From a virus (lineage: Duplodnaviria; Heunggongvirae; Uroviricota; Caudoviricetes): a stretch of 33,541 nucleotides of DNA. Location: the IMG/VR virus record IMGVR_UViG_2627853869_000007; one strand, 5' to 3'. Shown piece after piece: positions 3,172-22,413 of this stretch. Position numbers and translations under genes: made by a program. The notes beneath the pieces are model-generated. The model saw only the letters and a list, made by a program, of their open reading frames with translations. It made no database searches and was not told the origin of the DNA. Numbering within the stretch: position 1 is the stretch's first letter; each line of letters starts with the position of its first letter.

Positions 3172-3235
3172 GCAAGCACCTTAAAATCACCATCATACAC
3201 TAAATCAGTAAGTTGGCAGCATTACCAAGCAAAAG

Positions 3236-3427: not shown

Positions 3428-3442
3428 AGTTTCCTCCCGGTA

Positions 3443-4018
3443 TTATCTAACATATTTAACTGTTAAACTTATAATTTTACCAATTATTTCAATGTCTTCT
3501 ATCTTACATTCGAAGGCTCTGTTTCCACCCTCGACGAAGATTCTTCCACCGGGTAAACGAGTAATGTCACGGATCGTTACTTCGCCATCAATACTTATTA
3601 CCCATTTACCATCACGTATGTCATCAAATTCTTTATCACAAATAAATTCAGAATTGTTATCTGTGATGACAAAAGGTTTTTTAAACGTAGAGGGTAGAAA
3701 TCCCTTATCAAAAATATAAAAACCGTCTTCACGCAAGGCACCATCAGATAATACATATTTAGCAACTTCCATAGTATTTGTATTACCTGAAGTTTGCTTT
3801 GAACCATGTCCGGTTGTGAGCCAATTAAGCGAGGTGCCCGTTTCAAGGGCGCACTGGATTACCCATTCTGCTGGGAATGAGTCACGCATGTAGCGTGTGG
3901 CGAGTGTACTTTTAGAGATTCCTAAATGATCGCACAACGCCTGTCGAGTCTTGAATCCATAAGCTTCTACCATGCGCTCTATGGCGCCTCGTCCGCCTTT
4001 CTCCAAATTCATGGTCAC
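3443..4018 (-). CDS. cI: 186-type CI immunity repressor (N-terminal HTH, C-terminal CI-like domain)
   Basis: 191-aa ORF with EAYGF...LCDHLGISKSTLATRYMRD...CALETGTSLNWLTTG and C-terminal ...IRDITRLPGGRIFVEGGNRAFECKIEDIEIIG pattern resembling phage 186 CI; divergently transcribed from the apl-like gene. Confidence 0.7.
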   Translation of the reverse strand: MTMNLEKGGRGAIERMVEAYGFKTRQALCDHLGISKSTLATRYMRDSFPAEWVIQCALETGTSLNWLTTGHGSKQTSGNTNTMEVAKYVLSDGALREDGFYIFDKGFLPSTFKKPFVITDNNSEFICDKEFDDIRDGKWVISIDGEVTIRDITRLPGGRIFVEGGNRAFECKIEDIEIIGKIISLTVKYVR

Positions 4019-4035
4019 TCCAAGTGAACTTTTAT

Positions 4036-4064
4036 CTTGACGATTTCACTGTGCAATCGTATGT
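4036..4064 (+). promoter_or_regulatory. putative early rightward promoter (TTGACG-17 bp-TATGTT) with overlapping near-palindromic operator 4040-4058
   Basis: TTGACG at 4036-4041, 17-bp spacer, TATGTT at 4059-4064; spacer is the imperfect palindrome CGATTTCACTGTGCAATCG; lies in the cI/apl divergent intergenic region. Confidence 0.35.
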
Positions 4065-4137
4065 TTATGGTGTTCACAAAATACAAACGATCCGTATTCG
4101 TCCTGATTAATCATCATTAAACGAGGAATGTTGCATC

Positions 4138-4359
4138 ATGAGACCTAACATTTCAATCACTCTTACCACGCCTCATGTGACTATTGAACGCTATAGCGAG
4201 CTGACAGGGCTATCCATCGATACCATCAATGACATGTTGGCTGATGGACGCCTTATCCGTCACCGTCTGCGCAAAGATAAAAAACGCGAAAAAGTGATGA
4301 TCAACATAGCAGCAATGACCGTTGATGCGCTTTCAGAATGCAATCTAAACCTTAATTAG
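4138..4359 (+). CDS. Apl/Cox-like small HTH protein (putative excisionase / early regulator)
   Basis: 73-aa ORF with HTH-like segment [21 protein letters not shown]; first gene of the rightward early operon opposite cI. Confidence 0.5.
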
Positions 4360-4385
4360 TTCGATTCTGAAATACATCAGAGGCA

Positions 4386-4571
4386 TTGACCATGTTTGAT
4401 TACCAAGTTTCCAAACATCCACATTTTGATGAAGCCTGTCGTGCATTTGCACTGCGCCACAATCTGGTGCAACTGGCAGAACGTGCAGGCATGAATGTGC
4501 AGATTCTGCGGAACAAGCTGAACCCAGCTCAGCCTCATTTATTAACCGCACCAGAAATCTGGCTGCTTTGA
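4386..4571 (+). pseudogene. cII: CII-like regulator, N-terminal 60 codons only; truncated by IS911
   Basis: [24 protein letters not shown]...[16 protein letters not shown] resembles the 186 CII N-terminus; the stop codon TGA at 4569-4571 is the first 3 nt of the IS911 terminal repeat. Confidence 0.7.
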
Positions 4572-4640
4572 AGTGGCACACTGAATTTGGCCACCTGAAC
4601 AGAGGTGATATGCTCACCTCAGAACAACACAGGTGCTCCA

Positions 4641-5809
<1,169 letters not shown>

Positions 5810-5817
5810 CCACTTCA

Positions 5818-6457
5818 CGCCAGAGTTTTATTTGAGATCGCAAACAGGGAGGTGGCTTATTACAACATAAGGCAGGAGTTTAATTACTCAACTGAAATTA
5901 CTGATTTCATGAAAGCGGTATATTTCCTGTATCTCAATCGTCACGGTTACCGTGGTTTATGTCGCTATAACAAGAGCGGGCATTTCAACATTCCCTACGG
6001 CAATTATAAAAATCCGTATTTCCCTGAAAAAGAAATTCGCGCATTTGCAGAAAAAGCCCAGCGAGCAACGTTTATCTGCGCCAGCTTTGATGAAACGCTG
6101 GCGATGTTGAAGGCGGGGGATGTGGTGTATTGCGATCCACCGTATGACGGTACGTTTTCCGGCTATCACACTGATGGTTTCACTGAAGATGACCAGTATC
6201 ACCTAGCATCCGTTCTTGAACATCGGTCATCAGAAGGACATCCGGTCATTGTTTCTAACAGTGACACATCCCTGATCCGTTCGCTGTATCGCAATTTTAC
6301 TCACCACTATATCAAGGTAAAACGCAGCATCGGTGTGGCAGCTGGCGAGGGTAAATCAGCAACAGAAATCATTGCTGTTTCCGGGCCGCGCTGCTGGGTG
6401 GGATTTGATTATTCGCGTGGCGTGGATAGTTCTGCCGTGTACGGAGTACGTGCATGA
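5818..6457 (+). pseudogene. dam: Dam-type N6-adenine DNA methyltransferase, 5'-truncated (N-terminal SAM-binding region missing)
   Basis: Translation ...YYNIRQEFN...[19 protein letters not shown]...VVYCDPPY... matches the middle and C-terminal parts of Dam including the DPPY motif; the open frame begins inside the IS911 terminal repeat. Confidence 0.7.
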
Positions 6458-8868
6458 GCCATGCCGATATGAACAACTGCTGCGGCTTTAACGAGGCTGC
6501 CGCAGCGTTCTCATGGAACAGCCCGAAAAAGGCCATTAACCCTTATCTGGACCCGGCGGAAGTTGCGCCGGTTTCTGCGCTTTCAAACCTGATCACTCTG
6601 TACGCTGCCGATAACGAGCAGGAACAGTTGCGCCGCGAGGCACTGAGTGATCAGGTCTGGGAGCGTTATTTTTTTTATGAATCACGTGATCCTGTCCAGC
6701 ACGAAATGGAGCAGGATAAGCTCATTAGCCGGGCAAAGCTGGCGCATGAGCAGCAGCGTTTTAATCCGGATATGGTCATTCTGGCGGACGTCAACGCCCA
6801 GCCTTCCCATATCAGCAAGCCGCTGATGCAACGTATTGAATACTTCAGCAGCCTGGGCAGGCCAAAGGCTTATTCCCGCTATTTACGTGAGACGATTAAG
6901 CCATGTCTGGAACGACTGGAGCATGTACGCGACAGCCAGCTATCTGCATCTTTTCGTTTTATGGCAAGCCATGTAGGGCTGGACGGCCTGCTGATTCTGC
7001 CTGAAATGAGTCAGGATCAGGTGAAACGCCTGTCTACCCTTGTCGCTGCGCATATGAGCATGTGCCTTGATGCAGCTTGTGGTGATTTGTATGCCACCGA
7101 TGACGTTAAGCCAGAAGAAATCCGCAAGACATGGGAAAAGGTGGCAGCGGAAACCCTGCGTCTGGATGTCATCCCGCCTGCGTTTGAGCAACTCCGTCGG
7201 AAAAGAAACCGCCGTAAACCCGTGCCCTATGAACTCATTCCGGGTTCGCTGGCGCGTATGTTGTGCGCCGACTGGTGGTACCGGAAATTATGGAAAATGC
7301 GTTGCGAATGGCGGGAAGAGCAGTTGCGTGCTGTCTGCCTGGTCAGCAAAAAAGCATCTCCCTATGTCAGCTATGAAGCCGTGATGCATAAACGTGAGCA
7401 GCGCCGCAAGTCATTGGAGTTTTTCCGTTCTCATGAACTGGTGAACGAAGAGGGCGACACGCTGGATATGGAAGACGTGGTAAACGCCAGCAGCAGCAAC
7501 CCGGCGCACCGCCGCAATGAGATGATGGCCTGTGTTAAAGGTCTGGAGCTTATCGCGGAAATGCGCGGTGACTGCGCCGTTTTCTACACCATTACCTGTC
7601 CGTCACGTTTCCATTCCACGCTCAATAACGGCAGACCAAACCCAACCTGGACAAATGCGACGGTAAGACAAAGCAGCGATTATCTGGTCGGCATGTTTGC
7701 TGCATTTCGTAAGGCGATGCACAAAGCCGGGTTGCGCTGGTATGGCGTGCGGGTGGCTGAGCCGCATCATGACGGTACAGTTCACTGGCACCTGTTGTGT
7801 TTTATGCGCAAAAAAGACCGCCGCGCCATTACTGCATTGTTGCGTAAGTTTGCCATCCGTGAAGACCGCGAGGAACTGGGTAATAACACTGGTCCACGCT
7901 TTAAATCTGAGCTGATAAACCCGCGCAAAGGAACGCCGACAAGCTACATCGCGAAATACATCAGTAAGAACATTGACGGGCGTGGTCTGGCTGGCGAGAT
8001 CAGCAAGGAAACGGGTAAATCCCTGCGTGATAACGCTGAATACGTTAATCCCTGGGCGTCTCTGCATCGTGTTCAGCAATTCCGCTTCTTTGGTATTCCA
8101 GGGCGTCAGGCTTACCGTGAACTGCGGTTGTTGGCTGGTCAGGCGGCAAGGCAGCAGGGTGACAAAAAAGCAGGTGCGCCGGTACTGGATAACCCGCGCC
8201 TTGATGCCATCCTGGCTGCTGCTGATGCTGGCTGTTTTGCCACCTACATTATGAGGCAGGGCGGCGTGCTGGTTCCTCGCAAATATCACTTGATCAGAAC
8301 CGCTTATGAAATCAATGAAGAGCCGACCGCCTATGGCGATCACGGTATTCGTATTTATGGCATCTGGTCACCCATTGCAGAAGGCAAGATCTGCACTCAT
8401 GCAGTGAAGTGGAAAATGGTTCGTAAAGCCGTTGACGTTCAGGAGGCGGCAGCCGACCAGGGCGCTTGCGCCCCTTGGACTCGTGGCAATAACTGTCTCC
8501 TTGCTGAAAATTTGAACCAACAGGAGAAAGATAAATCAGCTGATGGGAACCCCAGAACGGACATTACCAGCATGGATGACAAGGAGTTGCACGATTACCT
8601 GCACAGTATGAGCAAAAAAGAGCGCCGGGAACTGGCAGCAAGGTTACGCCTGGTGAAACCGAAACGGCGTAAAGACTACAAACAGCGAATTACAGACCAT
8701 CAGCGACTGCAGCTCGTGTATGAGCTGAAGTCCAGAGGATTTGATGGCAGCGAGAAAGAGGTCGATTTACTCCTTCGCGGAGGCAGTATTCCGTCAGGAG
8801 CAGGCCTGCGTATCTTCTATCGGAACCAGCGTTTGCAGGAAGATGATCAGTGGCGGAACCTGTATTAA
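6454..8868 (+). CDS. A: P2-family replication initiation endonuclease GpA (HUH rolling-circle initiator)
   Basis: 804-aa ORF with HUH-type motif TVHWHLLCF and tyrosine motif [12 protein letters not shown]; start ATG overlaps the dam stop (ATGA). Confidence 0.85.
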
Positions 8869-8962
8869 TTACGCGGGTTAACAATTCGTGCTCTTAATAA
8901 TACCAGGCATATCAGGCTGATGAACGTAAAAAAACGTTTTACATCAGTAAGATTATTATATG

Positions 8963-8978
8963 CTGTAAATATAAACAG
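8963..8978. promoter_or_regulatory. LexA (SOS) box CTGT-N8-ACAG
   Basis: CTGTAAATATAAACAG, a 16-bp match to the CTGT-(AT-rich)8-ACAG SOS-box pattern, about 45 bp upstream of the RBS-preceded ORF at 9022. Confidence 0.55.
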
Positions 8979-9021
8979 TGGTTATGCATACAGTATTGCG
9001 TGTGGTGTCATAGGAGGAAAG

Positions 9022-9210
9022 ATGCAGGACTATTTTTTGGAGTCTTTGAAGCTCCAGCGCATTGATTTTTTTCTTAAGCTTGTAGCGGCTAGTGAGTGTA
9101 GTGATGAAGAGAAGGGGCTGGCTCTGCAGTGGGTTTCTGAATTGACTGATGAACTCATGGCAAAAATCAGAACCCACGAATACAACCGCTCAATGGATGT
9201 CATCAGCTGA
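9022..9210 (+). CDS. small hypothetical protein (62 aa), possibly the N-terminal part of a 186 Tum-like antirepressor module
   Basis: ATG at 9022 preceded by AGGAGG; position between gene A and the DinI-like gene. Confidence 0.45.
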   Translation: MQDYFLESLKLQRIDFFLKLVAASECSDEEKGLALQWVSELTDELMAKIRTHEYNRSMDVIS

Positions 9211-9230
9211 GGTGACTTTTATGCGCATTG

Positions 9231-9454
9231 AAATAATGATCGATAAAGAGCAGAAGATTAGCCAGTCTACCCTGGACGCTCTTGAATCCGAGCTTTACCG
9301 CAATCTGCGCCCTCTGTATCCCAAAACGGTAATTCGTATCCGCAAAGGTAGCTCTAACGGTGTGGAACTTACTGGATTGCAACTGGACGAAGAAAGAAAA
9401 CAAGTGATGAAAATTATGCAGAAGGTGTGGGAAGACGACAGCTGGCTGCATTAA
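9231..9454 (+). CDS. DinI-like protein
   Basis: 74-aa ORF MRIEIMIDKEQKISQSTLDALESELYRNLRPLYPKTVIRIRKGSSNGVELTGL...VWEDDSWL, the DinI family pattern. Confidence 0.75.
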
Positions 9455-9589
9455 GAAACGTTGCTGGCGTCTGAACTAGCTTCTGGCGTCAGCAAGGTTG
9501 AACAACGAGCCCTTGCGAGGCGTTAGCTCTGTAGTGCATGTCTATGCCGCATGAGATCGCATGATCGTTTGAGGATCGTTTTTGCTAAG

Positions 9590-9614
9590 GCCCGCCAGAA
9601 CTGGCGGGCTTTTG
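9590..9614 (+). terminator. rho-independent terminator after the DinI-like gene
   Basis: GC-rich hairpin GCCCGCCAG/CTGGCGGGC followed by TTTTG. Confidence 0.6.
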
Positions 9615-9656
9615 CGTAGATCATGCAGGTGCATGAAAACCTCTACATAAAGCGGG

Positions 9657-9675
9657 CAGGCGTGGCGGGGATACG
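9657..9675. other. cos-like sequence (candidate cohesive-end site)
   Basis: GGCGTGGCGGGGATACGAT resembles the 19-nt P2/186 cohesive-end sequence as I recall it (GGCG(A/T)GGCGGGGAAAGCA-); first 13 nt identical to the 186 version; recalled, not searched. Confidence 0.35.
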
Positions 9676-9746
9676 ATTGCGCGCTAGGTATAAGTGTGTA
9701 AAATAATTCCAAAATAAATCATCACTAATGAAGTGAGAGGGTAATA

Positions 9747-11396
9747 ATGTTAGTCAAGAAAAATAAAAATTATAGTTTATATTTTTTAATTACAAATAAT
9801 CAACAGATATCTGATTCTGGTAATTATATAAAAATAGTCCCATCAAGAAGCGATTGGAATGATTTTGGATATTTGAGTAGAGTCGAAATATCTATTTTTA
9901 ATAAAAAAGAGTGTAAGGATATAATTTCACTGAATGGTTATATTGGTTTTTTGAATTCAGAGGAGGAACGAAATGGAAAAGCAGAACTGATAAGGCGAGT
10001 GAAGAAAAAGGAAGAATCTAATTTAAAGGATGAGGGGTTTAATGATTATTTTGTCATGCTTCAGGATATGAATAATTATCGAAGACTAGTAAGATTTTTT
10101 GGGGTGAATGAATCCAAATATATATTAAATTTCATTAATGATGTTGTTTCTAAGAAAAGTGACGCTAGTGCAGAGAATTTGAGGAAAAAAGCAATCTCTT
10201 CTGATATCTTTAATAAATCTTTCATTAGAGAGTCTGAGTCGTATTTTACTTTCAAAAATGCAGGAACAGTTCTTTCCGGTATTCAATATGAGGAGTTGGG
10301 TAATTTATCACAGCACATCAAGATTAGCTATTCGAATAAAGTTAATGAAGAAGATGTATCTTATGTTTTTAATTTTGATCACGAGCATGATTTACCAAAA
10401 AGAATTTCCATAATTATAGGCGAGAATGGTGTAGGAAAAAGCCAAACGCTTAGAGAAATCGCATTGGCTGCGATTAAAGGAAAGGATAATTTGGTGGCTG
10501 TAGTTGATTCTAACGGTGTGAGCATTGAAGAACGAATTCAAATTAGTAGGCTCATTGCTTTTTCTCCAACAAATGAAAGTAAGTGTTCATTTCCAACCGA
10601 TAAAAGAATAAAATCATTGATATGGTACAAAAGATTGACTTTAAATCGTGAATCAAAATCCAAATTAAACTTGAATGATTTAATAGTGCAACTAGCGAGG
10701 AGTAACGACGCTATCGGCTATAATCAAAGGTGGAATATATTTGTTGATGCACTGAGTGTTCTAAATAGTAACAACGATTTAGTAATCAAATGTGGCGGTG
10801 AAAATTCACCATTTGTTAAATTAAATGAGCTTAATTCTCGAGGCGAAGAATCTAGACTATCATTATATTCTGAAATTATTCTCTCTGGCGAGCCTTTGAG
10901 GCTTATTGAAAATAAATGTTACCCTTTGAGTAGTGGGGAAATATCGTTTATTAAGTTTTGTGTACAAGTCTGTTTGTATATTGAGAATGGGACTCTTCTA
11001 TTAATAGATGAGCCAGAAACACATCTCCATCCTTCATTTATTAATAAATTTATGGCATTGCTTGATAATTTATTAGAAAAGACAGGCTCTTCAGCTATCA
11101 TAGCAACGCATTCGGTTTATCTTGTTCGGGAGGTTTTTAAGGAGCAAGTGACAATACTCAGAAGACGAGATGATGGGGTAATTGTTAGCGAAAAACCGAG
11201 ATTGAGTACTTTTGGGGCGAATATAGGAAATATCTCATATTTTGTTTTCGGTGAGAGTGAACCAACTCAAATTTTAAATAAAGTAAAAAACAATATAATT
11301 GCAAAGAATATGTCTTGGGATGATGTTGAATCTAAATATAGCGAGGACTTATCACTTAATGTATTAACTGCGTTGAGAAATGAAATGGGCAATTGA
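9747..11396 (+). CDS. ABC-type (AAA_15/AAA_21-like) ATPase with an unassigned ~215-aa N-terminal domain; candidate defence ATPase (Septu PtuA-like architecture)
   Basis: 549-aa ORF; Walker A GENGVGKS (Lys231, nt 10437-10439), signature-like LSSGE (394-398), Walker B LLLIDEPETHLHP (D421-E422), H-loop IATHS (H455); AT-rich and Asn/Lys/Ile-rich unlike flanking phage genes. Confidence 0.7.
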   Translation: MLVKKNKNYSLYFLITNNQQISDSGNYIKIVPSRSDWNDFGYLSRVEISIFNKKECKDIISLNGYIGFLNSEEERNGKAELIRRVKKKEESNLKDEGFNDYFVMLQDMNNYRRLVRFFGVNESKYILNFINDVVSKKSDASAENLRKKAISSDIFNKSFIRESESYFTFKNAGTVLSGIQYEELGNLSQHIKISYSNKVNEEDVSYVFNFDHEHDLPKRISIIIGENGVGKSQTLREIALAAIKGKDNLVAVVDSNGVSIEERIQISRLIAFSPTNESKCSFPTDKRIKSLIWYKRLTLNRESKSKLNLNDLIVQLARSNDAIGYNQRWNIFVDALSVLNSNNDLVIKCGGENSPFVKLNELNSRGEESRLSLYSEIILSGEPLRLIENKCYPLSSGEISFIKFCVQVCLYIENGTLLLIDEPETHLHPSFINKFMALLDNLLEKTGSSAIIATHSVYLVREVFKEQVTILRRRDDGVIVSEKPRLSTFGANIGNISYFVFGESEPTQILNKVKNNIIAKNMSWDDVESKYSEDLSLNVLTALRNEMGN

Positions 11397-12261
11397 AATG
11401 AATAAATTAAAAAGACCTGTTTTTAAAGATTATTCTGCATTTAAAAAACTATCTGCAAATAAGAGATTAAAACATCATTCTGTTCTGAATGGACAGGATA
11501 CATTTATACTTAATGCATATAGATCGTACATAAAGAATAAAGGGTATCTTAATGTCAATTCTTGTGGCGTATTGAGTAACAATATTGCTGAAGCTTTGAG
11601 ATATTATTATAACAATCCCGCAAAGTGTTTATCTATAATTGATGATATAAGAGCAGCTAATTCTAACTCTCTATGTCCAATGTGTGGTTCAATGCATAGC
11701 GGGACTTTGGATCATGTTTTACCCAAGGAAAACTATCCAGAATTTTCTTTATTCACTAAGAATTTGGTTCCTGCTTGCAAATGTAATACTTTCAAAAGTA
11801 CTACTATAGCTAATTCTGCAGGCCATCGGATGCTGCATCCATATTTTGATAATATATTAAAACAAAGATTAATATGTGCTAATTTTTCTAAATTAGGGCG
11901 AACACCTACAATTGATGTAAAAATCATAATTGACCCAATGTCACCAGAATATAACAATGTTAAGTATCATCTTGATAATGTTGTTATCAAGAATAATATT
12001 AAGGGGTATTTGTCTGAACAATGGGAGTCGTTTTACTTATATCCTGAGCTTGTTATTAGAGGACTGAATAAGAGTCTTTCTACTTATAGCGATGTATATG
12101 AGTTGTTGACTCGCGAGTTGTTGCTGTTGGATGAAAAACATAAAGGTAAAAATAATTGGAATTCGGTTTTTGTAGCTGGGTTAATTCGACCTGATGTGAT
12201 TAGGTGGATACTCTGTGAATTACATTTAGGTAACAGAAGTCCAGACGGTCGTCTCATATGA
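11380..12261 (+). CDS. HNH-family nuclease (PtuB-like partner); overlaps the upstream ATPase by 17 nt
   Basis: 293-aa ORF with CPMC(99-102)...DH(111-112)...N128...CKC(133-135)...H149/H153 arrangement typical of zinc-finger HNH endonucleases; alternative start at 11398. Confidence 0.7.
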   Translation: MKWAIEMNKLKRPVFKDYSAFKKLSANKRLKHHSVLNGQDTFILNAYRSYIKNKGYLNVNSCGVLSNNIAEALRYYYNNPAKCLSIIDDIRAANSNSLCPMCGSMHSGTLDHVLPKENYPEFSLFTKNLVPACKCNTFKSTTIANSAGHRMLHPYFDNILKQRLICANFSKLGRTPTIDVKIIIDPMSPEYNNVKYHLDNVVIKNNIKGYLSEQWESFYLYPELVIRGLNKSLSTYSDVYELLTRELLLLDEKHKGKNNWNSVFVAGLIRPDVIRWILCELHLGNRSPDGRLI

Positions 12262-12271
12262 TTTTTTGCAT

Positions 12272-12297
12272 CTTCAGCGTGTATCTGCACGCTGAAG
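12272..12297. repeat. perfect 10-bp inverted repeat hairpin just downstream of the HNH gene
   Basis: CTTCAGCGTG-TATCTG-CACGCTGAAG; no U-tract on either strand, so function (terminator vs protein-binding site) is unclear. Confidence 0.5.
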
Positions 12298-12367
12298 AAA
12301 TTCATAAAAACTGCTGGCTATTAATAAATTTTTTAGCTGTGTTAAAGAACCTCATTTAGTGATTACG

Positions 12368-13402
12368 TTAAGTAGCTAGTTTATAACTATCAAATTTAAC
12401 AATGTTCTCACTTACCAATTTATTTATTTCCATCATTCTTTTTTGTAACGGTATTAACTCGTTACGTACAAACTCCAGGCTCGCCTTCTCCACATCCCCA
12501 AACCCCCCGACATTATTAGGCATAATCCCCATCATTTGCGGTGGCACACGATGCGCCGCCATCATGTCATCCCGGCTCACGTTCTTGATGTTCAGAAACT
12601 CATCCTTCGCCGCGACTTCTGACAACGGGATGATCTGAAGCCCGTCCTTTTTGCCGTTAGGCGAGTACATAAACAGATTGCGGAAGTTACCTGGTCCTTT
12701 GGCGCTTTTCATCGCATTGCGGAGGTTGTTCACATCCTCCTGGTTTTGCGCGGCATCGGTCATGTACATGATGAAGCCTGCATGACTGCCGTTAATGTAA
12801 TACTATCGGCGGAACAGCGTGGCGGACTCGTTGAGCAGGGCTGACGGAATGGCAGAAAGGTAACCTGGCAGGCCGTAGATCTCTTGGTTGATGTCCGGTT
12901 CCATCAGATGAAAGATGCTTCCTTTCGTGAACTGATACGGCTGCGTGGTCATGCCGTATTGCACAAACCAGTAGGTATCCAGGTCTAATCCGCGTCGGGT
13001 GTATTTTGCCAGAGCAGGCTCAAGAGCGATGACCTCTCCGAACCGGTTTGTGCGTTTCTCCAGGTAAGCGTTACCAAATACCAGATAATCCTGCACAAAA
13101 CGTGAAAAAGCCTGCTGGCTGAGCAGCGGGTGAGGGATGTAGGTACTGATCAGAATGTTGCATTTCACCGCAATTGGTGAACTGTGATGCACGGCGGCGC
13201 GGAAGGTGCGCGCCAGTCCGTCAAAACTCACTGGCGGCTCATACCAGCGATCTGTCTGTACGCATTCCACATAGTCCAGTAGTTCACGGCGGTCCAGAAC
13301 CGGAACGGGATCGCCGAAGCTGAATGCTTCGGCTGAAGTCTGGTTTTTATGCTGGGTCTGTTTCGTCGCCGCAGCGCGGTTCTTCTTACTCTTTCCCATC
13401 AA
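12368..13402 (-). pseudogene. Q: portal protein GpQ interrupted by a single in-frame amber (TAG) codon at 12803-12805
   Basis: ORFs 12803-13402 and 12368-12769 are in the same frame; read through the TAG they give a continuous 344-codon portal-like protein (...ATLFRR*YYINGSHAGFIMYMTDAAQ...). Confidence 0.8.
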
Positions 13403-15165
13403 AAAATCTCCACAATATTGCTGGTATTGGCGGACTCGCCCTGCAGCGGTTCGTTAAACAGTGCGTGCATTGTTGCCCAGGCCAGATCGGCATGGCTGGC
13501 TTCTTCGCTGCGGCTGGCTTCATAGGTCGGGCGGTTGCCGCTGGCGGTGGTGGCGCGACGGATTGCCATGAATGACTGCGCAATGTCGGTGTGCCCGGCG
13601 TCAAACTCAAGACGGCGGTGGCTGATAATGTCGTAGGCCTTGAGTACCAGGGCGTTTTTAACGTTGGGGTTGTAGACAAACTCCCGGACGGCAGGAAAAA
13701 ACGCTTTCACGTTCTCGTAAACCCCGTGACCAACGCCGGTTGAGTCGATGCCGATATAGGTCACGTTGTACTGTTCAGTCAGTTTTTTGATGGCGTCAGC
13801 CTGGGCGCGAAAGTCCATTCCGCGCCACTGGTGACGCTCAAGAATGCGGAACTTACCGCCTGGCACGGCTGGCGGTGCCACCACCACGCATCCGGCGCTG
13901 TCGCCGTTCTGCGTACCTTTTGCCGGGTCATAACCGATCCACACTTCGCGCCAGCCAAACGGGCGCAGGGCCAGTGCATGAAAGTCGGTCCAGACTTCCC
14001 AGCTGTCCACCATGCACGCCTGCAATTCGCTGAGCGGGAACACGGACGCGAGATCGTCCACGAACTCGCACATCAGCAGGTTCTGGTATTCGTCAGGGCT
14101 GTACTCCATGCGCAACTGGTCAAGGTCGAACAGGTTACAGGCGCCGCGCACCGCATCTTCCACGGTGACTATCTGGCGGTATTGCCCGTCTGCGCACAGC
14201 CGGCCGGGGGCCAGATTGCTGTGGGACAGGTCGATGTCCACCTTGTCAGCTTTGTTGCGCCCACGGTTGAACAGCGCACCGGACCAGAACGGATAAGCAC
14301 TGTGGGTCAGACTGGATGGTGTGGAAAAATAGGTCTGCCGCCATTTCTTGTGAATAGCCATACCGGAAGCCACTTTGCGTAGCTCCTGAAATTTCGGTAT
14401 CCAGAAATATTCATCCAGATACAGGTTACCGTGATAACTCTGGGCAGTGCGGGCATTGGTGCCGAGGAAATACAGTGTGGCCCCGTTGGGAAGCACCATC
14501 GGATCGCCTTTCAGCTCCACCTCCACTTCTTTGGCAAAGTCGATGATGTACTGTTTGAAGACGTGGGCCTGTGCCTTACTGGCAGAAAGGAAAATCTGGT
14601 TACGTCCGGTAAGCAGGGCGTCAATCAGGGCTTCACGGGCAAAATAGAAGGTCGCGCCGATCTGGCGTGACTTCAGCAGGTTGCGGATGCGGTTGGTTTT
14701 TCCGGCTTCCCACCAGTGGCGCTGGTAGTTGAACATGGAGGAATGGAAAATTTTTTCCAGCTTCTCAATCTGGTCATCGGTGAAAACATTCTTTTCAGGC
14801 TGACGGCGTGGGCCTTTGTTGCGGTTGGCGACGTTAGGGTTTAAGTCGGCTTCGTTGCCGCCATTGTTAAACTTGCCGATCCGCGCGTGGCGCTCAGACT
14901 GGCGCGCCAGCAGGTCAATCTCTTTGAAATCTTTCCCTTCTTTGTGCTCCTTCATGATGAGCTGGCAGTAGCGTGCGGCGGTGGTGAGCTGCATCTGATC
15001 CAGAGGCCCATAGTCACCCCACTTGTCGCGTTTTTTCCAGCTGTGAACGGTTGCAACTTTCTCGCCCAGCATTTCAGCAATGCGGGCTACGCGGTATCCC
15101 TGAAAGTACAGCAGCATGGCCTGCCGACGGGGATCGAGATCTGCGGGTGTCAGTGTGGTGTTCAT
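13399..15165 (-). CDS. P: terminase large (ATPase) subunit GpP
   Basis: 588-aa ORF upstream of and overlapping Q, divergent from O; P2-family terminase pattern. Confidence 0.85.
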   Translation of the reverse strand: MNTTLTPADLDPRRQAMLLYFQGYRVARIAEMLGEKVATVHSWKKRDKWGDYGPLDQMQLTTAARYCQLIMKEHKEGKDFKEIDLLARQSERHARIGKFNNGGNEADLNPNVANRNKGPRRQPEKNVFTDDQIEKLEKIFHSSMFNYQRHWWEAGKTNRIRNLLKSRQIGATFYFAREALIDALLTGRNQIFLSASKAQAHVFKQYIIDFAKEVEVELKGDPMVLPNGATLYFLGTNARTAQSYHGNLYLDEYFWIPKFQELRKVASGMAIHKKWRQTYFSTPSSLTHSAYPFWSGALFNRGRNKADKVDIDLSHSNLAPGRLCADGQYRQIVTVEDAVRGACNLFDLDQLRMEYSPDEYQNLLMCEFVDDLASVFPLSELQACMVDSWEVWTDFHALALRPFGWREVWIGYDPAKGTQNGDSAGCVVVAPPAVPGGKFRILERHQWRGMDFRAQADAIKKLTEQYNVTYIGIDSTGVGHGVYENVKAFFPAVREFVYNPNVKNALVLKAYDIISHRRLEFDAGHTDIAQSFMAIRRATTASGNRPTYEASRSEEASHADLAWATMHALFNEPLQGESANTSNIVEIF

Positions 15166-15211
15166 GGCACAAACCTACAGCCTTGAATGAAGGCTTTCCC
15201 CGCCTGCGGTT

Positions 15212-15229
15212 TGTGTGGTTGTCGGTACA
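15212..15229. promoter_or_regulatory. Ogr-type late promoter element TGT-N12-ACA in the divergent P/O control region
   Basis: TGTGTGGTTGTCGGTACA between the divergent P (leftward) and O (rightward) genes. Confidence 0.5.
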
Positions 15230-15307
15230 AATACCGCGCATTGTTTCACTGCCCCTATCACCGCAACCATAAGGCTCCAGTAAGTTTTTTCTAACGGAGC
15301 ACGGCTC

Positions 15308-16141
15308 ATGACAGTGAAAGCAAAGCGTTTTCGCATCGGGGTGGAAGGTGCCACCACCGACGGACGCGAAATCCAGCGTGAATGGCTGGAACAGATGGCA
15401 GCCAGCTATAACCCGGCGGTGTATACCGCGCTGATTAACCTTGAGCACATCAAGTCTTATCTGCCGGACAGCACCTTTAACCGCTACGGCAAGGTGACGG
15501 CGCTGTTTGCTGAAGAAATCACGGAAGGTCCGCTGGCAGGCAAGATGGCGCTGTATGCTGACGTTGAGCCAACGGAGTCCCTGGTGGAACTGGTGAAAAA
15601 AGGCCAGAAATTATTCACCTTTATGGAAGTCAGCCCGAAGTTCGCTGATACGGGCAAAGCCTACCTAGTCGGCCTGGCTGCCACTGATGACCCTGCCAGT
15701 CTGGGCACTGAAATGCTGACATTCAGCGCCAGTGCAGCCCATAACCCGCTGGCAAACCGCAAGCAGAATCCCGCCAATCTCTTTACCGCCGCAGAGGAAA
15801 CGGTGATCGAACTGGAAGAAGTCCAGGACGACAAACCGTCCCTGTTTGCCCGCGTCACGGCGCTGTTTACCAAAAAAGAGCAGTCCGATGACGCCCGGTT
15901 CTCTGATGTGCATAAGGCCGTGGAGCTGGTCGCCACTGAGCAGCAGAACCTGAGCGCACGCACCGAAAAATCCCTGTCTGAGCAGGAAGAACGCCTGTCT
16001 GAGCTGGAGACTGCCCTGCAGGCACAGCAAACCGCCTTTAACGAACTGGTGGACAAGCTGAGTCATGAAGACAGCCGCCAGGACTACCGCCAGCGTGCAA
16101 CAGGCGGTAACGCCCCCGCTGACACTCTGACCAATTGCTGA
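15308..16141 (+). CDS. O: capsid scaffolding protein GpO
   Basis: 277-aa ORF ...RFRIGVEGATTDGREI...INLEHI...YLVGLAATDDPASLGTE...; P2 O-like, first gene of the rightward head operon. Confidence 0.85.
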   Translation: MTVKAKRFRIGVEGATTDGREIQREWLEQMAASYNPAVYTALINLEHIKSYLPDSTFNRYGKVTALFAEEITEGPLAGKMALYADVEPTESLVELVKKGQKLFTFMEVSPKFADTGKAYLVGLAATDDPASLGTEMLTFSASAAHNPLANRKQNPANLFTAAEETVIELEEVQDDKPSLFARVTALFTKKEQSDDARFSDVHKAVELVATEQQNLSARTEKSLSEQEERLSELETALQAQQTAFNELVDKLSHEDSRQDYRQRATGGNAPADTLTNC

Positions 16142-16157
16142 TGGAGCACAAAACCTG

Positions 16158-17216
16158 ATGAAGAAGAATACCCGCTTTGCTTTTAACGCTTACCTGCAGC
16201 AACTGGCGCGTCTGAACGGTGTGGCAGTTGAAGAACTGTCCAGCAAGTTCACCGTAGAGCCGTCCGTGCAGCAGACGCTGGAAGACCAGATCCAGCAGTC
16301 CGCCGCTTTCCTGACTCTGATTAACGTCACGCCAGTGACTGAGCAGTCCGGTCAGCTGCTGGGGTTGGGAGTTGGCAGCACCATTGCCGGAACCACTGAT
16401 ACCACTGCGAAAGAGCGTGAACCTGTCGATCCGACGCTGATGGTCGATGTGGAATATAAATGCGAGCAGACCAACTTTGACACGGTGCTGACCTACGCGA
16501 AGCTGGACCTGTGGGCGAAGTTTCAGGATTTTCAGGTGCGTATCCGTGACGCCATCGTGAAACGTCAGGCACTGGACCGCATCATGATCGGCTTTAATGG
16601 CGTGAAGCGTGCGAAAACCTCCAACCGTAGCGAAAACCCGCTGCTGCAGGATGTGAATAAAGGCTGGCTGCAGAAAATCCGTGAGGATGCACCGGATCAC
16701 GTCATGGGCAGCACCACCACGGGCGGTGAAACCACACCGGGCGCAGTGAAAGTCGGGAAAGGTGGCGAATATGCCAACCTGGACGCCGTGGTGATGGATG
16801 CCGTCAATGAGCTTATCGACGTGGTCTACCAGGACGATGACGATCTGGTGGTGATTTGCGGTCGTGAACTGCTGTCTGACAAGTATTTCCCGCTGGTCAA
16901 CAAAGAGCAGGAAAACAGTGAAAAACTGGCTGCCGATATGATCATCAGTCAGAAACGCATGGGTGGCCTGCAGGCCGTGCGTGCGCCGTTCTTCCCGCCG
17001 AATGCGCTGCTGATCACCCGTCTGGATAACCTGTCCATCTACTGGCAGGAAGACACCCGCCGCCGTTCAGTTATCGACAACCCGAAACGTGACCGGATTG
17101 AAAACTTTGAATCCGTTAACGAAGCCTATGTGGTTGAGGACTACCGCTGCGCCGCACTGGTGGAAAACATCCAGATTAGTGATTTCAGCGCCGCCGCAGC
17201 CGAAACCGGAGCGTAA
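16158..17216 (+). CDS. N: major capsid protein GpN
   Basis: 352-aa ORF ...TRFAFNAYLQQLARLNGV...KFTVEPSVQQTL...; P2 N-like. Confidence 0.9.
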   Translation: MKKNTRFAFNAYLQQLARLNGVAVEELSSKFTVEPSVQQTLEDQIQQSAAFLTLINVTPVTEQSGQLLGLGVGSTIAGTTDTTAKEREPVDPTLMVDVEYKCEQTNFDTVLTYAKLDLWAKFQDFQVRIRDAIVKRQALDRIMIGFNGVKRAKTSNRSENPLLQDVNKGWLQKIREDAPDHVMGSTTTGGETTPGAVKVGKGGEYANLDAVVMDAVNELIDVVYQDDDDLVVICGRELLSDKYFPLVNKEQENSEKLAADMIISQKRMGGLQAVRAPFFPPNALLITRLDNLSIYWQEDTRRRSVIDNPKRDRIENFESVNEAYVVEDYRCAALVENIQISDFSAAAAETGA

Positions 17217-17219
17217 TCC

Positions 17220-17870
17220 ATGAGCCTGAGTCCCGCACGGCAGCATCGCCTGCGCGTTCAGGCTGAACAGGCCGTCCGTGAGGGTGGCAGTGTTCGCCAC
17301 GCATCGGGCTATGACCTGATGCTGCTGCAACTGGCGGAAGACCGCCGCCGTCTCAAGGGCGTTCAGTCCACGGTCAAAAAAGCGGAAATCAAAGTGGAGC
17401 TGCTGCCGAAGTACGCCGCCTGGGCGGAGGGTGTCCTGGCTGCCGGAGGCGCTCAACAGGATGACGTGCTGATGTACGTGATGTTGTGGCGCATTGATGC
17501 CGGAGATTATGCCGGGGCGCTGGAGATCGGGCGTCATGCCCTGCGTCATGGATGGGTGATGCCGCTGGGCAACCGCAACGTGCAGACCGTGCTGACAGAG
17601 GAAATGGCAGATGCAGCGCAGAGCGCAATGCTTGCCGCCACCGGCTTTGATGCCGATCTGTTGCTGCAGACGCTGGAGCTGACAGACGGTCTGGATATGC
17701 CGGACCAGTCACGGGCACGTCTGCATAAAGCGATTGGCGCGGTCCTGAGTGAAAGCAATCCGGCTTCCGCCCTTAATCATCTCAACCATGCGTTACAGCT
17801 CGATCCCCGCTGTGGCGTGAAAAAAGACAAACAGCAGCTGGAGCGCAGACTGCGCAATGACAGCCGCTGA
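17220..17870 (+). CDS. M: terminase endonuclease (small) subunit GpM
   Basis: 216-aa ORF ...QDDVLMYVMLWRIDAGDYAGALEIGRHALRHG...; P2 M-like. Confidence 0.85.
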   Translation: MSLSPARQHRLRVQAEQAVREGGSVRHASGYDLMLLQLAEDRRRLKGVQSTVKKAEIKVELLPKYAAWAEGVLAAGGAQQDDVLMYVMLWRIDAGDYAGALEIGRHALRHGWVMPLGNRNVQTVLTEEMADAAQSAMLAATGFDADLLLQTLELTDGLDMPDQSRARLHKAIGAVLSESNPASALNHLNHALQLDPRCGVKKDKQQLERRLRNDSR

Positions 17871-17966
17871 CAGAACGTGCCCCCGCGCACGGGCGGCACG
17901 GGGTGGCGAAAGGCACAGCCACATCAAAACCCCGTCCACCGCCCTTTATTTCAGGAGAAAGCAGCA

Positions 17967-18430
17967 TGAAGTTTGTTGCGCCAGAACAGGCACCGGAACA
18001 GGCGGAAATCATTAGAAATACGCCGTTCTGGCCTGATGTGGACCTGTCGGAGTTTCGCAGTGTCATGCGCACTGACGGCACGGTGACGCAGCCGCGTTTA
18101 AAGCAGGTTGCACTGTCGGCAATTTCGGAGGTTAACGCAGAGCTGTATGAGTTTCGCAGACGCCAGCAGATGCTGGGGTATGCGTCGCTGGCTGAGGTTC
18201 CGGCGGAACAGCTGGACGGGAAAAGTGAGCGCATTCAGCACTATTTCAACGCGGTTTACTGCTGGGCTCGCGCCATGCTCAACGAACGTTTCCAGGACTA
18301 TGACGCCACGGCATCCGGTGCGAAGCGGGGCGAAGAACTGGCGGAAGCAAGCGGTGATTTGTGGCGTGACGCCCGCTGGGCCATCAGCCGGGTGCAGGAC
18401 GCGCCGCACTGCACAGTGGAGCTTATCTGA
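17967..18430 (+). CDS. L: head completion/stabilisation protein GpL
   Basis: ATG at 17967 preceded by AGGAGA; ...NTPFWPDVDL...NAELYEFRRRQ...DLWRDARWAISRVQDAPHCTVELI; P2 L-like. Confidence 0.8.
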
Positions 18431-18633
18431 TGAAAGTGCGTGCGCATCAGTATGACACGGTGGACGCGCTTTGCTGGCGTCATTACGGGCGCACGCAGGG
18501 TGTCACGGAGCAGGTACTGAAGGCAAATCCGGGGCTTGCCGAATACGGCCCCTTTTTACCTCACGGGCTGCAGGTGGAGCTGCCGGACATTCCGACCACC
18601 ACCACCGTGCAGACCGTCCAGCTATGGGACTGA
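18430..18633 (+). CDS. X: tail protein GpX
   Basis: 67-aa ORF at the P2 X position. Confidence 0.7.
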   Translation: MKVRAHQYDTVDALCWRHYGRTQGVTEQVLKANPGLAEYGPFLPHGLQVELPDIPTTTTVQTVQLWD

Positions 18634-18636
18634 ATT

Positions 18637-18852
18637 ATGACGCTTGAGCGAATCAGCGCCTTTATCACGTATTGCATCGCCGTCGTGCTGGCCTGGCTGG
18701 GCGATTTGTCCATCAAGGATGCCTCAACGCTGGGCGGCCTGATGATTGGTGTGCTGATGCTGGCTATCAACTGGTACTACAAACACAAAGCCTACCAGCT
18801 TCTGCGCGACGGGCAGATCTCGCGGGAGGACTATGAATCCATCAATCGTTAA
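18637..18852 (+). CDS. holin, two-TMD pinholin-like
   Basis: 71-aa ORF with two hydrophobic segments and charged C-terminus, immediately upstream of and overlapping the endolysin. Confidence 0.6.
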   Translation: MTLERISAFITYCIAVVLAWLGDLSIKDASTLGGLMIGVLMLAINWYYKHKAYQLLRDGQISREDYESINR

Positions 18853-19345
18853 ACGCTGCCTTGTCGGGGCCGTGCTGGCTATTGCTGCCACGCTGCCGGG
18901 TTTTCAGCAGCTTCACACCTCCGTGGAGGGACTGAAACTGATTGCCGATTACGAAGGTTGTCGTCTGCAGCCGTATCAGTGCAGCGCGGGTGTCTGGACC
19001 GACGGTATTGGTAATACGTCGGGCGTCATTCCCGGCAAAACCATTACGGAGCGACAGGCAGCAGAAGGGCTGATCTCCAACGTGCTGCGTGTGGAGCGGG
19101 CGCTGGAAAAGTGTGTGAAGCAACAGCCGCCGCAGAAGGTGTATGACGCTGCGGTGTCGTTTGCCTTCAACGTGGGTACGGGCAATGCCTGCAGTTCCAC
19201 GCTGGTGAAATTGCTCAATCAGCGGCGCTGGGCGGATGCGTGCCGACAGTTGCCGCGCTGGGTTTATGTGAAAGGTGTTTTTAATCAGGGGCTGGATAAC
19301 CGCCGTGCGCGGGAGATGGCCTGGTGTTTACAGGGAGCAAACTGA
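18833..19345 (+). CDS. endolysin, lysozyme-like, with N-terminal signal-anchor-release (SAR) type hydrophobic segment
   Basis: 170-aa ORF; N-terminal CLVGAVLAIAATLPG weakly hydrophobic Gly/Ala-rich segment followed by lysozyme-like region ...DYEGCRLQPYQCSAGVWTDGIGNT... Confidence 0.75.
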   Translation: MNPSIVKRCLVGAVLAIAATLPGFQQLHTSVEGLKLIADYEGCRLQPYQCSAGVWTDGIGNTSGVIPGKTITERQAAEGLISNVLRVERALEKCVKQQPPQKVYDAAVSFAFNVGTGNACSSTLVKLLNQRRWADACRQLPRWVYVKGVFNQGLDNRRAREMAWCLQGAN

Positions 19346-19346
19346 A

Positions 19347-19724
19347 ATGAAAAAGAAATTAATCAGCGGGCTGTTTCTGATGTTATGGATGGCGCTGTTA
19401 ATCGCAGCAATGGTGTATCCGCAGGGGATTTTTCCGGTACTGGCAGCGTCCGGCGTTTGGGTAGCCTGTTTACTGACATGGGCGGTAATTCCGGTAGCAC
19501 TGGCTTCGTTAATTAAGAATGGCCCGCTCTGGCAGGAGTTGAGGGCATCTTTACTGAAGACAATTACCCGAAAAGAAAACGTATTTATCAGCTGGGTGAT
19601 ACGATTGCTGATTGTCGTCAGTCTCGCCTGGACGGGGTGGGCCATTACCCTGGTCTTTTATCTGCTGACCGTTATTGCCTTCTGGATCACCCATAATCAG
19701 ATGGCGCAACAGGTAGCCGCATGA
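19347..19724 (+). CDS. LysA-like membrane protein (lysis accessory)
   Basis: ATG at 19347 after GGGAG; 125-aa protein with several hydrophobic helices; position as P2 lysA. Confidence 0.6.
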   Translation: MKKKLISGLFLMLWMALLIAAMVYPQGIFPVLAASGVWVACLLTWAVIPVALASLIKNGPLWQELRASLLKTITRKENVFISWVIRLLIVVSLAWTGWAITLVFYLLTVIAFWITHNQMAQQVAA

Positions 19725-20149
19725 ACCGGTTGCTGCTGGTTGTGCTGGCGTTATTATTGGCGGCGCTGGGCTGGCAGACGTGGCGGCTGGCTGATGCCAG
19801 CCAGACCATCAGCACGCAGGCAGACGAGCTGCAGAGCAAAAGCCAGGCACTGGCAAAGAGCAACAGCCAGCTTATCAGCCTGTCCATTCTGACTGAAACC
19901 AATAACCGGGAGCAGGCGCGGCTCTATGCCGAAGCAGAACAGACCAGTGTACTGCTGAGACAACGACAACGCCGGATTGAGGAACTGAAACGTGAGAACG
20001 AGGATTTACGTCGCTGGGCTGATACTCCTTTGCCTGCTGACATTATCCGGCTGCGGGAACGTCCGGCACTCACCGGAGGTGCAGCTTACCGTCAGTGGTT
20101 GTCCGCGAGTGACGCCGTGTCGGCTGGAGCAGGCAGCGCCGCGCACTAA
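19721..20149 (+). CDS. LysB, Rz-like i-spanin
   Basis: N-terminal TMD then coiled-coil Gln/Arg/Glu-rich periplasmic domain. Confidence 0.7.
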   Translation: MNRLLLVVLALLLAALGWQTWRLADASQTISTQADELQSKSQALAKSNSQLISLSILTETNNREQARLYAEAEQTSVLLRQRQRRIEELKRENEDLRRWADTPLPADIIRLRERPALTGGAAYRQWLSASDAVSAGAGSAAH

Positions 20150-20282
20150 CGGTGATCTGAATGCGTTGCTGGATGAAACGGAGGCCGCCTGGGCGGTCTG
20201 TGCAGACAAAGTGGACATGATTATTGCGTGTCAGGAGCGAAACAGTGAACAAACCACAATCCCTGCGCCACGCCCTCAATAA
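19992..20282 (+). CDS. LysC, Rz1-like o-spanin lipoprotein, out of frame across the lysB 3' end
   Basis: Signal peptide with lipobox LTLSGC; Pro-rich short mature part; starts inside lysB in a different frame. Confidence 0.65.
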   Translation: MRTRIYVAGLILLCLLTLSGCGNVRHSPEVQLTVSGCPRVTPCRLEQAAPRTNGDLNALLDETEAAWAVCADKVDMIIACQERNSEQTTIPAPRPQ

Positions 20283-20676
20283 AGCAGTGCCTTATGTCCG
20301 TAATAACCCGGACAAACTGCATCTGTTTGTGGATAACGGTTCGCTGGTTGCCTCCGGGGCTAGCTCCATGTCATGGGAGTACCGCTACACCCTGAACGTG
20401 GTGATTGAAGATTTCAGCGGCGACCAGAATCTGCTGATGGCCCCGGTTTTGCTGTGGCTGCGGGATAACCAGCCCGATGCGATCAATAACCCGGCGTTAC
20501 GGGAAAAGCTATTCACCTTTGAGGTGGATATTCTGCGCAACGATGTCTGTGATATCAGCCTTAACCTGCAACTGACGGAGCGTGTGCTGGTCAGCACTGA
20601 CGGCAGTGTGTCGAACGTTGAAGCGGTAGCGGAACCTGATGAACCTGAAGAAATGTGGACGGTGAAACGTGGCTGA
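20245..20676 (+). CDS. R: tail completion protein GpR
   Basis: ...LHLFVDNGSL...RYTLNVVIEDFSGDQNLLMAPVLLWLRDNQPD...; start probably GTG at 20245 after AGGAGCG. Confidence 0.8.
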   Translation: MNKPQSLRHALNKAVPYVRNNPDKLHLFVDNGSLVASGASSMSWEYRYTLNVVIEDFSGDQNLLMAPVLLWLRDNQPDAINNPALREKLFTFEVDILRNDVCDISLNLQLTERVLVSTDGSVSNVEAVAEPDEPEEMWTVKRG

Positions 20677-21112
20677 ATTGCAGAAGGTGGACGACTGGCT
20701 GAGTGCATTATTGGCGAATCTGGAGCCAGCCGCAAGAAGCCGCATGATGCGCCAGCTGGCGCAGGAACTGCGCCGGACACAGCAGCAGAACATCAGGATG
20801 CAGCGCAATCCTGATGGCAGCAGTTATGAGCCGCGCAGGGTAACAGCACGCAGCAAAAAGGGGTGCATCAAACGTCAGATGTTTACAAAGCTGCGCACCA
20901 CAAAATACCTGAAAACTGCAGCCAGCGCCGATTCTGCCAGCGTACAGTTTGAAGGTAGGGTGCAGCGCATTGCCCGTATTCACCATTACGGCTTGAGTGA
21001 TCGCGTCAGTCGAAAAGGTATTTATACCATCTATGCGAAAAGGCAGTTATTAGGTTTTAATGTCCAATCTATTGAGTTAATTGAAAGAATGTTCATTAAA
21101 AACCTAACTTGA
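20669..21112 (+). CDS. S: tail completion protein GpS (appears complete; 3' end AT-rich)
   Basis: 147-aa ORF ...MMRQLAQELRRTQQQNIRMQRNPDGS...IARIHHYGL...YAKRQLLGF...; P2 S-like through the C-terminus. Confidence 0.75.
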   Translation: MAELQKVDDWLSALLANLEPAARSRMMRQLAQELRRTQQQNIRMQRNPDGSSYEPRRVTARSKKGCIKRQMFTKLRTTKYLKTAASADSASVQFEGRVQRIARIHHYGLSDRVSRKGIYTIYAKRQLLGFNVQSIELIERMFIKNLT

Positions 21113-21190
21113 TTTTTATTTGTTTTCAATTGAGTGGTAATGCTGCCAACTTACTGATTTAGTGTATGATGGTGATTTTAAGGTGCTTGC

Positions 21191-21466
21191 GTGGCTTCCA
21201 TTTCCATCAGATGTCCTTCCTGCTCCGCTACTGAAGGCGTGGTGCGTAACGGCAAAAGCACTGCCGGACATCAGCGCTATCTCTGCTCTCATTGCCGTAA
21301 AACATGGCAACTACAGTTCACTTACACCGCCTCTCAGCCCGGTACGCACCAGAAAATCATTGATATGGCCATGAATGGCGTCGGATGTCGCGCCAGTGCA
21401 CGCATTATGGGCGTTGGCCTCAACACGGTTTTACGTCACTTAAAAAACTCAGGCCGCAGTCGGTAA
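21191..21466 (+). CDS. insA: IS1 InsA
   Basis: Identical 91-aa translation to copy A. Confidence 0.9.
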
Positions 21467-21888
21467 CCTCGCGCATACAACCGGGCAGTGATGTGATTGT
21501 CTGCGCTGAAATGGACGAACAGTGGGGCTACGTCGGTGCTAAATCACGTCAGCGCTGGCTGTTTTACGCGTATGACAGGATACGGAGGACGGTTGTGGCG
21601 CACGTCTTCGGTGAACGCACTCTGGCCACACTGGAGCGTCTTCTGAGCCTGCTGTCGGCCTTTGAGGTCGTGGTATGGATGACGGATGGCTGGCCGCTGT
21701 ATGAATCACGCCTGAAGGGAAAGCTGCACGTTATCAGCAAGCGTTACACTCAGCGCATTGAGCGACATAATCTGAATCTGAGACAACATCTGGCAAGGCT
21801 GGGACGGAAGTCACTGTCGTTCTCAAAATCGGTGGAGCTGCATGACAAGGTCATCGGGCATTATCTGAACATAAAACACTATCAGTAA
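21385..21888 (+). CDS. insB: IS1 InsB
   Basis: Identical 167-aa translation to copy A. Confidence 0.9.
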
Positions 21889-21903
21889 GTTGGAGTCATT
21901 ACC

Positions 21904-22002
21904 CACCCGACTTAACGCCGTGTTGGATTACATTGACGCGGTGGCGGCAACAGATACCAGCACCGCGCCGGATGTCATCTGGCCTGAACTGCCGGAGGCG
22001 TA
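21904..22002 (+). pseudogene. tail fiber assembly gene, 3' remnant (5' part removed by IS1)
   Basis: Frame from 21904 reads ...NAVLDYIDAVAATDTSTAPDVIWPELPEA*, a typical tail-fiber-assembly C-terminus; converges on and overlaps the 3' end of the opposite-strand tfa gene. Confidence 0.6.
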
Positions 22003-22412
22003 GGCCATTCAATATCTGGAGCACTGGAGGTATCAATCAGTTCCAGTGCGTCCAGATAATCCAGCCACAAATTATATTGCGCCAGTTCCTCACCTTTCAG
22101 ACGACCAATAGCGGCTTTACCGGGCCATTGTTTACTGTTCATGTATTCGTTGGCCTGATTAAGCAATAATTGCCTTTCTGATTCTGCCTGTTGAATAAGT
22201 TCTTCATATGATGGTGGAGGTATTAGTGCCCATGTGGGTAATCCATTTTTTCCTGCAACACGAATTTTGTCATCTGGGGGCGTATTGATTGCAAATTCAT
22301 TATAAACATCATCACTGACAGCCAGAGCATCATCTGGCCATGAATTTGCATTAATGTAATCATCCTTAAGCGCAGGATTCACAAAAATGTTTAAAGATGG
22401 ACTATAAAACAT
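21975..22412 (-). CDS. tail fiber assembly protein (Tfa/U-type chaperone) of the invertible segment
   Basis: 145-aa ORF ...NSKQWPGKAAIGRLKGEELAQYNLWLDYLDALELIDTSSAPDIEWP... Confidence 0.8.
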   Translation of the reverse strand: MFYSPSLNIFVNPALKDDYINANSWPDDALAVSDDVYNEFAINTPPDDKIRVAGKNGLPTWALIPPPSYEELIQQAESERQLLLNQANEYMNSKQWPGKAAIGRLKGEELAQYNLWLDYLDALELIDTSSAPDIEWPTPPAVQAR

Positions 22413-22413
22413 A

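Follow-up and report, generated by a model that had tools for sequence, protein, structure and literature searches.

Among the closest described systems are the laboratory amber (sus) mutants of bacteriophage P2, in which one sense codon of an essential morphogenetic gene has become TAG and which can in principle be suppressed in a sup+ host; in the classical amber mutants of Q, the portal gene, procapsid assembly and DNA packaging fail. Decay of cryptic prophages by IS insertion, deletion and point mutation is a general phenomenon that has been reviewed (PMC6379469). The window analysed here, a stretch of 33,541 nucleotides, contains a P2-family (Peduoviridae) prophage whose portal gene is interrupted by an in-frame TAG. 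We conclude with high confidence that this codon is a fixed loss-of-function mutation of AAG (Lys199) to TAG in a cryptic, non-inducible prophage, and that it is a product of ordinary decay. Unlike the laboratory sus mutants, the amber of the window is natural, is fixed in a bacterial lineage and stands beside irreparable lesions.

Translation of positions 13402-12368 in one frame meets one stop inside the sequence and a TAA at its end. As the initial annotation had proposed, the minus-strand ORFs at 12803-13402 (199 aa, TTG start) and 12368-12769 (133 aa) thus lie in the same frame, with TAG as the sole stop between them (minus strand around the stop: GCC ACG CTG TTC CGC CGA TAG TAT TAC ATT AAC GGC). 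Its count of 344 codons (199 + 1 + 11 + 133) is arithmetically sound for these ORFs, but Q almost certainly starts at the ATG at 13399, which overlaps the terminase TGA by one base, and the gene consequently has 343 codons, laid out as 198 aa, the TAG and 144 further codons. The RefSeq annotation of the closest intact relative uses the same ATG and describes a 1032-nt, 343-aa portal gene. The conserved YY.NG.HAG motif falls between the TAG and the internal ATG and is absent from the 133-codon ORF. Gene order and strand suggest that P and Q form an operon in that order; as Q would be the distal gene of this unit, the amber would have no polar target. Coordinates of the features are collected in Table 1.

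Table 1. Features of the portal locus and of the surrounding prophage, with the blocks shared with the intact prophage of E. coli UPEC-245U (H1).
Feature	Position in window	Strand	Remarks
Colinear block, H1 3145-3338	1-194		100% identity
IS cluster	195-3232		Partial IS911 195-1150, IS3-family 1151-2461, IS1 2462-3232
Colinear block, H1 4377-5718	3227-4568		99.9% identity
Full IS911	4569-5817	+	Replaces 1,835 bp, end of cII to start of dam
Colinear block, H1 7554-22875	5815-21135		99.8% identity
dam remnant	5852-6457		Retained beyond IS911
Portal (gpQ) pseudogene	12368-13399	-	343 codons + TAA; colinear with intact P2-family portals
Downstream 133-codon ORF (portal C-terminal part, internal ATG)	12368-12769	-	Split artefact, not a gene
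V309E (derived), codon 309	12473-12475	-	Val in 8/8 intact homologues aligned
Amber TAG, portal codon 199	12803-12805	-	Ancestral AAG (Lys); T to A on + strand at 12805
N-terminal fragment, 198 aa	12806-13399	-	Sole product expected under normal translation
T84I (derived), codon 84	13148-13150	-	Variable position
Terminase ATPase subunit (gpP)	13399-15165	-	Open; directly upstream of Q, probably in the same transcription unit
IS1 downstream of S	21130-21900		Right side abuts 5,545-bp deletion
Colinear block, H1 28421-40059	21903-33541		99.9% identity
Tail-fibre assembly gene	21975-22412	-	
Alternative tail-fibre C-terminal piece	22414-22800	-	
Hin/Gin-type recombinase	22831-23397	+	

Pfam, tblastn and a nine-sequence alignment bore out that the ORFs make up the two halves of a single, colinear P2-family portal gene. 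With K placed at codon 199, the read-through product scored 64.6 bits against Pfam PF04860 (Phage_portal), above the curated cut-off of 39.1. It is 61% identical to P2 gpQ (query residues 8-343), 93% to the portal of Escherichia phage Cartapus and 99% to the intact 343-aa portal of the prophage in E. coli UPEC-245U; identity to Burkholderia, Pseudomonas phiCTX and Mannheimia phages was 54-61%, and to HP1 about 33-35%. No PDB chain matched the portal at E ≤ 0.001. By tblastn, 98-100% of the query was covered end to end in P2, Cartapus and Yersinia phages, and the alignment contained 59 invariant columns distributed on both sides of the TAG, in keeping with the claim that conserved sequence flanks the stop. 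As in P2, Q is colinear over its full length, lies immediately 3' of gpP and diverges from the O-N-M-L capsid operon; unlike P2 gpQ, the window gene has TAG at codon 199, V309E and an AT-rich, divergent stretch over its last ~5-16 codons. Because the frame is interrupted at codon 199, we regard the gene as a pseudogene rather than a functional member of the portal family.

The ancestral codon is apparent from intact relatives. A megablast search of 5,426 complete E. coli genomes returned 1,200 in which at least 80% of the query was matched; UPEC-245U (H1) was the best of these (99.4%), followed by two Korean isolates (97.4%). On base-by-base comparison, position 12805 is A in the window and T in H1 and H2, the two closest intact prophages, which read AAG; the lesion is therefore one A>T transversion on the coding strand that converts Lys199 to amber, a one-base nonsense change as first supposed. 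AAG was also found in the sole GTDB representative contig with identical flanks when any codon was allowed, although dereplicated GTDB is uninformative on Shigella. This contig (L020:338-366) is 4.5 kb long and belongs to a MAG labelled "Bacillota bacterium"; its closeness to an enterobacterial P2-like portal suggests that it is a binning contaminant. Codon 199 lies inside the conserved motif LNESATLFRR[K/R]YY.NG.HAG, in which F196, R197, R198, Y200, N203, G204, H206 and G208 are invariant, and of the eight intact Peduoviridae portals aligned at column 199, six have K and two have R. A functional portal in two pieces (198 aa + 133 aa) was considered and rejected, as the 12 missing residues include the invariant Y200, N203, G204, H206 and G208.

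The stop is not the only change in Q, and the gene cannot be called otherwise intact, as it was initially: in addition to T84I, it carries V309E at a position occupied only by Val in the eight homologues. Glu309 is what unconstrained drift would be predicted to produce. The 3' end of the gene is also unusual. Its last ~5-16 codons (12368-12415, minus strand) are AT-rich, unlike those of other P2-like portals, ending in …EINKLVSENIVKFDSYKLAT where the consensus reads …EINxxxGEEVVKF…, and megablast matches to most E. coli prophages start only at window 12383-12415; the adjacent variable cassette thus appears to be swapped at a junction within the 3' end of Q.

The same lesion is widespread in Shigella. 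The exact 198-aa fragment was found on at least 1000 contigs (1377 position-index blocks), the longest of 4.8 Mb, in records that include Shigella flexneri and "Tax=Shigella", and the exact 133-aa ORF on 825 contigs, S. flexneri CDC 796-83 among them. None of the amber-bearing contigs fell in the 20-50 kb class and most were of 5-20 kb, as expected from IS-bounded segments in draft assemblies. In ten distinct contexts, drawn from independently assembled complete or near-complete Shigella chromosomes, a stop was present at codon 199 in all ten. One of these, CP000036.1, matches the window at 20,593 of 20,597 bases (4 differences; 99.98%); it is the chromosome of S. boydii serotype 4 strain Sb227, of which S. 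flexneri 6 is a close relative (PMC8767353). The window must accordingly derive from a very close relative of Sb227, and in the S. boydii / S. flexneri serotype 6 lineage the amber is both fixed and inherited.

The prophage of the window occupies the same site, between rcdA and ybjL, as the intact H1 prophage, which is complete from integrase to ogr. When the window was searched by BLAST against the H1 prophage, four colinear blocks were obtained (Table 1); the window lacks H1 reference positions 3339-4376, 5719-7553 and 22876-28420, and an IS bounds each gap. The IS cluster at 195-3232, whose IS3-family element (1151-2461) contains ORFs of 108 and 296 aa, has displaced about 1,038 bp of int, and only the last 194 bp of that integrase gene remain, at window 1-194. 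At the full IS911 (4569-5817), the end of cII, fil, DUF5347, DUF2732, a traR-like gene and the start of dam have been lost, and the 5,545-bp deletion took DUF5677, V, W, J, I, H and most of G, including the baseplate and tail-fibre genes. The element is accordingly not a complete P2-like prophage, having losses in the integrase, the cII-dam 5' part and DUF5677-V-W-J-I-H-G, and because integrase, baseplate and tail fibres are gone, neither excision nor infectious particles would be expected whatever codon 199 reads. Against these three IS-associated deletions, the description of the lesion as a point mutation rather than decay fails, and survives only in the narrow sense that the amber is the sole point-type knockout in the window copy. 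Within the ~27 kb retained, the amber is the one nonsense codon and the only stop or frameshift; every other retained late gene is open, so decay has not been uniform.

In these respects the locus resembles other cryptic prophages of Shigella and E. coli, which likewise show multiple IS1, IS911 and IS3-family insertions with essential modules lost beside the IS, an accumulation of nonsense and missense changes and, in the amber copies, further lineage-specific decay. Nothing essential sets the window apart from them, its head, lysis and tail-sheath/tube blocks being unusually well preserved. Shigella genomes typically show decay of this kind, by IS1, IS911 and IS3-family elements. The elements also form perfect inverted repeats, of 956 nt for IS911 (195-1150 / 4862-5817) and 771 nt for IS1 (2462-3232 / 21130-21900), and large parts of the prophage would be inverted if either pair recombined; in one related copy (L013) the early region is rearranged. 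Beyond the second IS1 lies the remnant of an invertible tail-fibre segment (21975-23397), all three parts of which are identical to those of the intact relative; because the main fibre gene H is deleted, they are orphaned.

Comparison among the Shigella copies gives the order of some of these events. In L013 (CP026766), which bears the amber, the same IS1 is present as a simple insertion with a 9-bp duplication (reference 22867-22875), and DUF5677 and V are retained beyond it; the amber is therefore older than the baseplate/tail-fibre deletion. It also predates V309E, because the amber-bearing copies L004, L008, L009 and L013 keep Val309. Every amber context seen also has the IS1 and the IS911/dam junction, as such or in rearranged form, and the amber may itself have been the lesion that first grounded the prophage. 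A second amber-bearing sub-lineage (L004, CP026807; L008, PSSQ01000001; L009, CP026834; L010, CP026823; L012, CP026840) differs in its IS1 junction, which leaves only 133 aa of S, and in its tail-fibre remnant; it also has the replication gene A interrupted by IS66 and the head-completion gene L split by an 18-bp deletion, and is an instance of independent, continuing decay.

For 18 genes, the window was compared with ten amber-bearing Shigella copies, and every variable site entered the count only once. The late genes differed by 25 nonsynonymous, 1 nonsense (Q669 to stop in A of copy L007) and 16 synonymous changes, and the terminase alone by 9 nonsynonymous and 2 synonymous; other lesions were the 18-bp deletion in L (five copies), a 21-bp insertion in O and IS66 in A. 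There are, as a rule of thumb, about three nonsynonymous sites per synonymous site, and an N:S ratio of about 1.6 then corresponds, given this approximate site ratio and small counts, to a dN/dS of order 0.5 rather than 1. Such a value is well above those usual for functional phage structural genes, which suggests that the late region is under relaxed constraint; that it falls short of 1 speaks, within the limits of the small counts, against wholly neutral decay.

From these data, the effect of the mutation can be outlined. Translation of the portal must stop after Arg198 unless the UAG is suppressed, and no programmed reading of the TAG is expected. The resulting 198-aa product would lack the YY.NG.HAG motif and the C-terminal 144 residues (42%) and would probably be unable to form a dodecameric portal; procapsid assembly and DNA packaging would then be expected to fail, in line with the head-assembly defect named in the initial annotation. 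The amber is one of several lesions that prophage decay under relaxed selection has left; the protein would be non-functional and the mutation is probably neutral.

Three other explanations were weighed against ordinary decay. The TAG might have entered the source record through an error of sequencing or assembly, the real gene being intact; it differs from the closest intact relative by a single base, and the G-run of the same gene contains 1- or 5-bp deletions in three other, amber-bearing assemblies, which may be homopolymer sequencing errors. The codon-199 lesion is a substitution and not a homopolymer indel, however, and with the identical 198-aa product on that many contigs and index blocks and the stop in ten independent chromosomes, Sb227 included, this explanation is vanishingly improbable; an error, the possibility on which the initial annotation would have been refuted, is excluded by these population data. 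One could alternatively envision a suppressible lesion, in which a suppressor tRNA or UAG read-through yields portal at a useful level and the head module remains functional. P, O, N, M and L are all open, a capsid requires only 12 portal copies, and the N-terminal fragment is exactly conserved in many genomes, although the last is expected from recent common ancestry. On the other hand, no tRNA gene was found in the 33.5-kb window, and supE, supF and supD insert Gln, Tyr and Ser, which may not be tolerated because position 199, within an invariant motif, is always K or R. V309E was gained after the amber, frameshifts are present in some lineages, and both the excess of nonsynonymous changes in the terminase and the L deletion in five copies count against a maintained head module, as does the fact that heads would be useless without baseplate, tail fibres and integrase. 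Programmed read-through would predict a stop conserved at codon 199 in functional relatives, but the intact relatives have K or R, with AAG in the closest, and TAG was found only in decayed Shigella copies. An alternative genetic code was also rejected, as the apl-like gene ends in TAG, which is thus a normal stop here, and relatives encode Lys at codon 199. We consider it extremely unlikely that the lesion is suppressed to any effect, and the original proposal of restoration by a suppressor or by reversion would apply to the portal protein at most, and not to the phage.

The remaining alternative concerns the sequence next to Q. Between a cos-like site and the portal stop lies a two-gene AT-rich cassette (30-33% GC; 9747-12261, plus strand) encoding a 549-aa AAA_21 ATPase and a 287-aa protein, annotated as an HNH endonuclease by RefSeq in a relative; both genes are open. 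Their best PADLOC matches are PDC-M01A (3e-55) and PDC-M01B (1e-33), with weaker matches to PtuA (Septu), and the cassette may be a defence system retained in a dead prophage. The cos-like site, GGCGTGGCGGGGATACGAT at 9659-9677, is a G-rich 19-mer recognised by eye that presumably resembles the cohesive ends of P2 and 186. A search of the window for P2 cos itself, GGCGAGGCGGGGAAAGCAC, gave nothing with up to 3 mismatches. If GGCGTGGCGGGGATACGAT is cos, the defence-like cassette sits between cos and Q, at the left end of the genome. Under a selective explanation, the amber would have been favoured because it grounds the prophage and spares the host from lytic killing while its cargo (ATPase and HNH, PDC-M01 / Septu-like) is kept, and the portal fragment may, hypothetically, poison the portals of incoming P2-like phages. 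Such an explanation would agree with the age of the amber, which all copies seen have inherited and which preceded the large tail deletion, and with the state of the adjacent cassette, intact and with only synonymous changes among Shigella copies; across ten of them its ATPase shows two synonymous changes, plus 1 bp deleted in a single assembly, against a background of drift in the neighbouring late genes. However, the shared IS911 early-gene deletion and loss of the integrase would ground the prophage equally well, neutral fixation is expected in a clonal, small-population pathogen such as Shigella, and the substitution counts are too small to show selection, so we regard selection for the amber as very unlikely and retain neutral decay as the explanation.

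The portal amber is therefore of an already known kind, a pseudogene in a decayed Shigella prophage, and is not surprising. No paper describing it was found in a literature search, and both portal fragments are already present in public Shigella annotations under generic names. For annotation, the finding calls for a single portal-pseudogene entry in place of the two ORFs, and for labelling the element as a defective prophage instead of a candidate inducible P2-like phage. For the biology of Shigella, it provides a clean, datable case of prophage pseudogenisation, of little wider importance, and within the S. boydii / S. flexneri 6 lineage the amber serves as a shared derived marker of the prophage.
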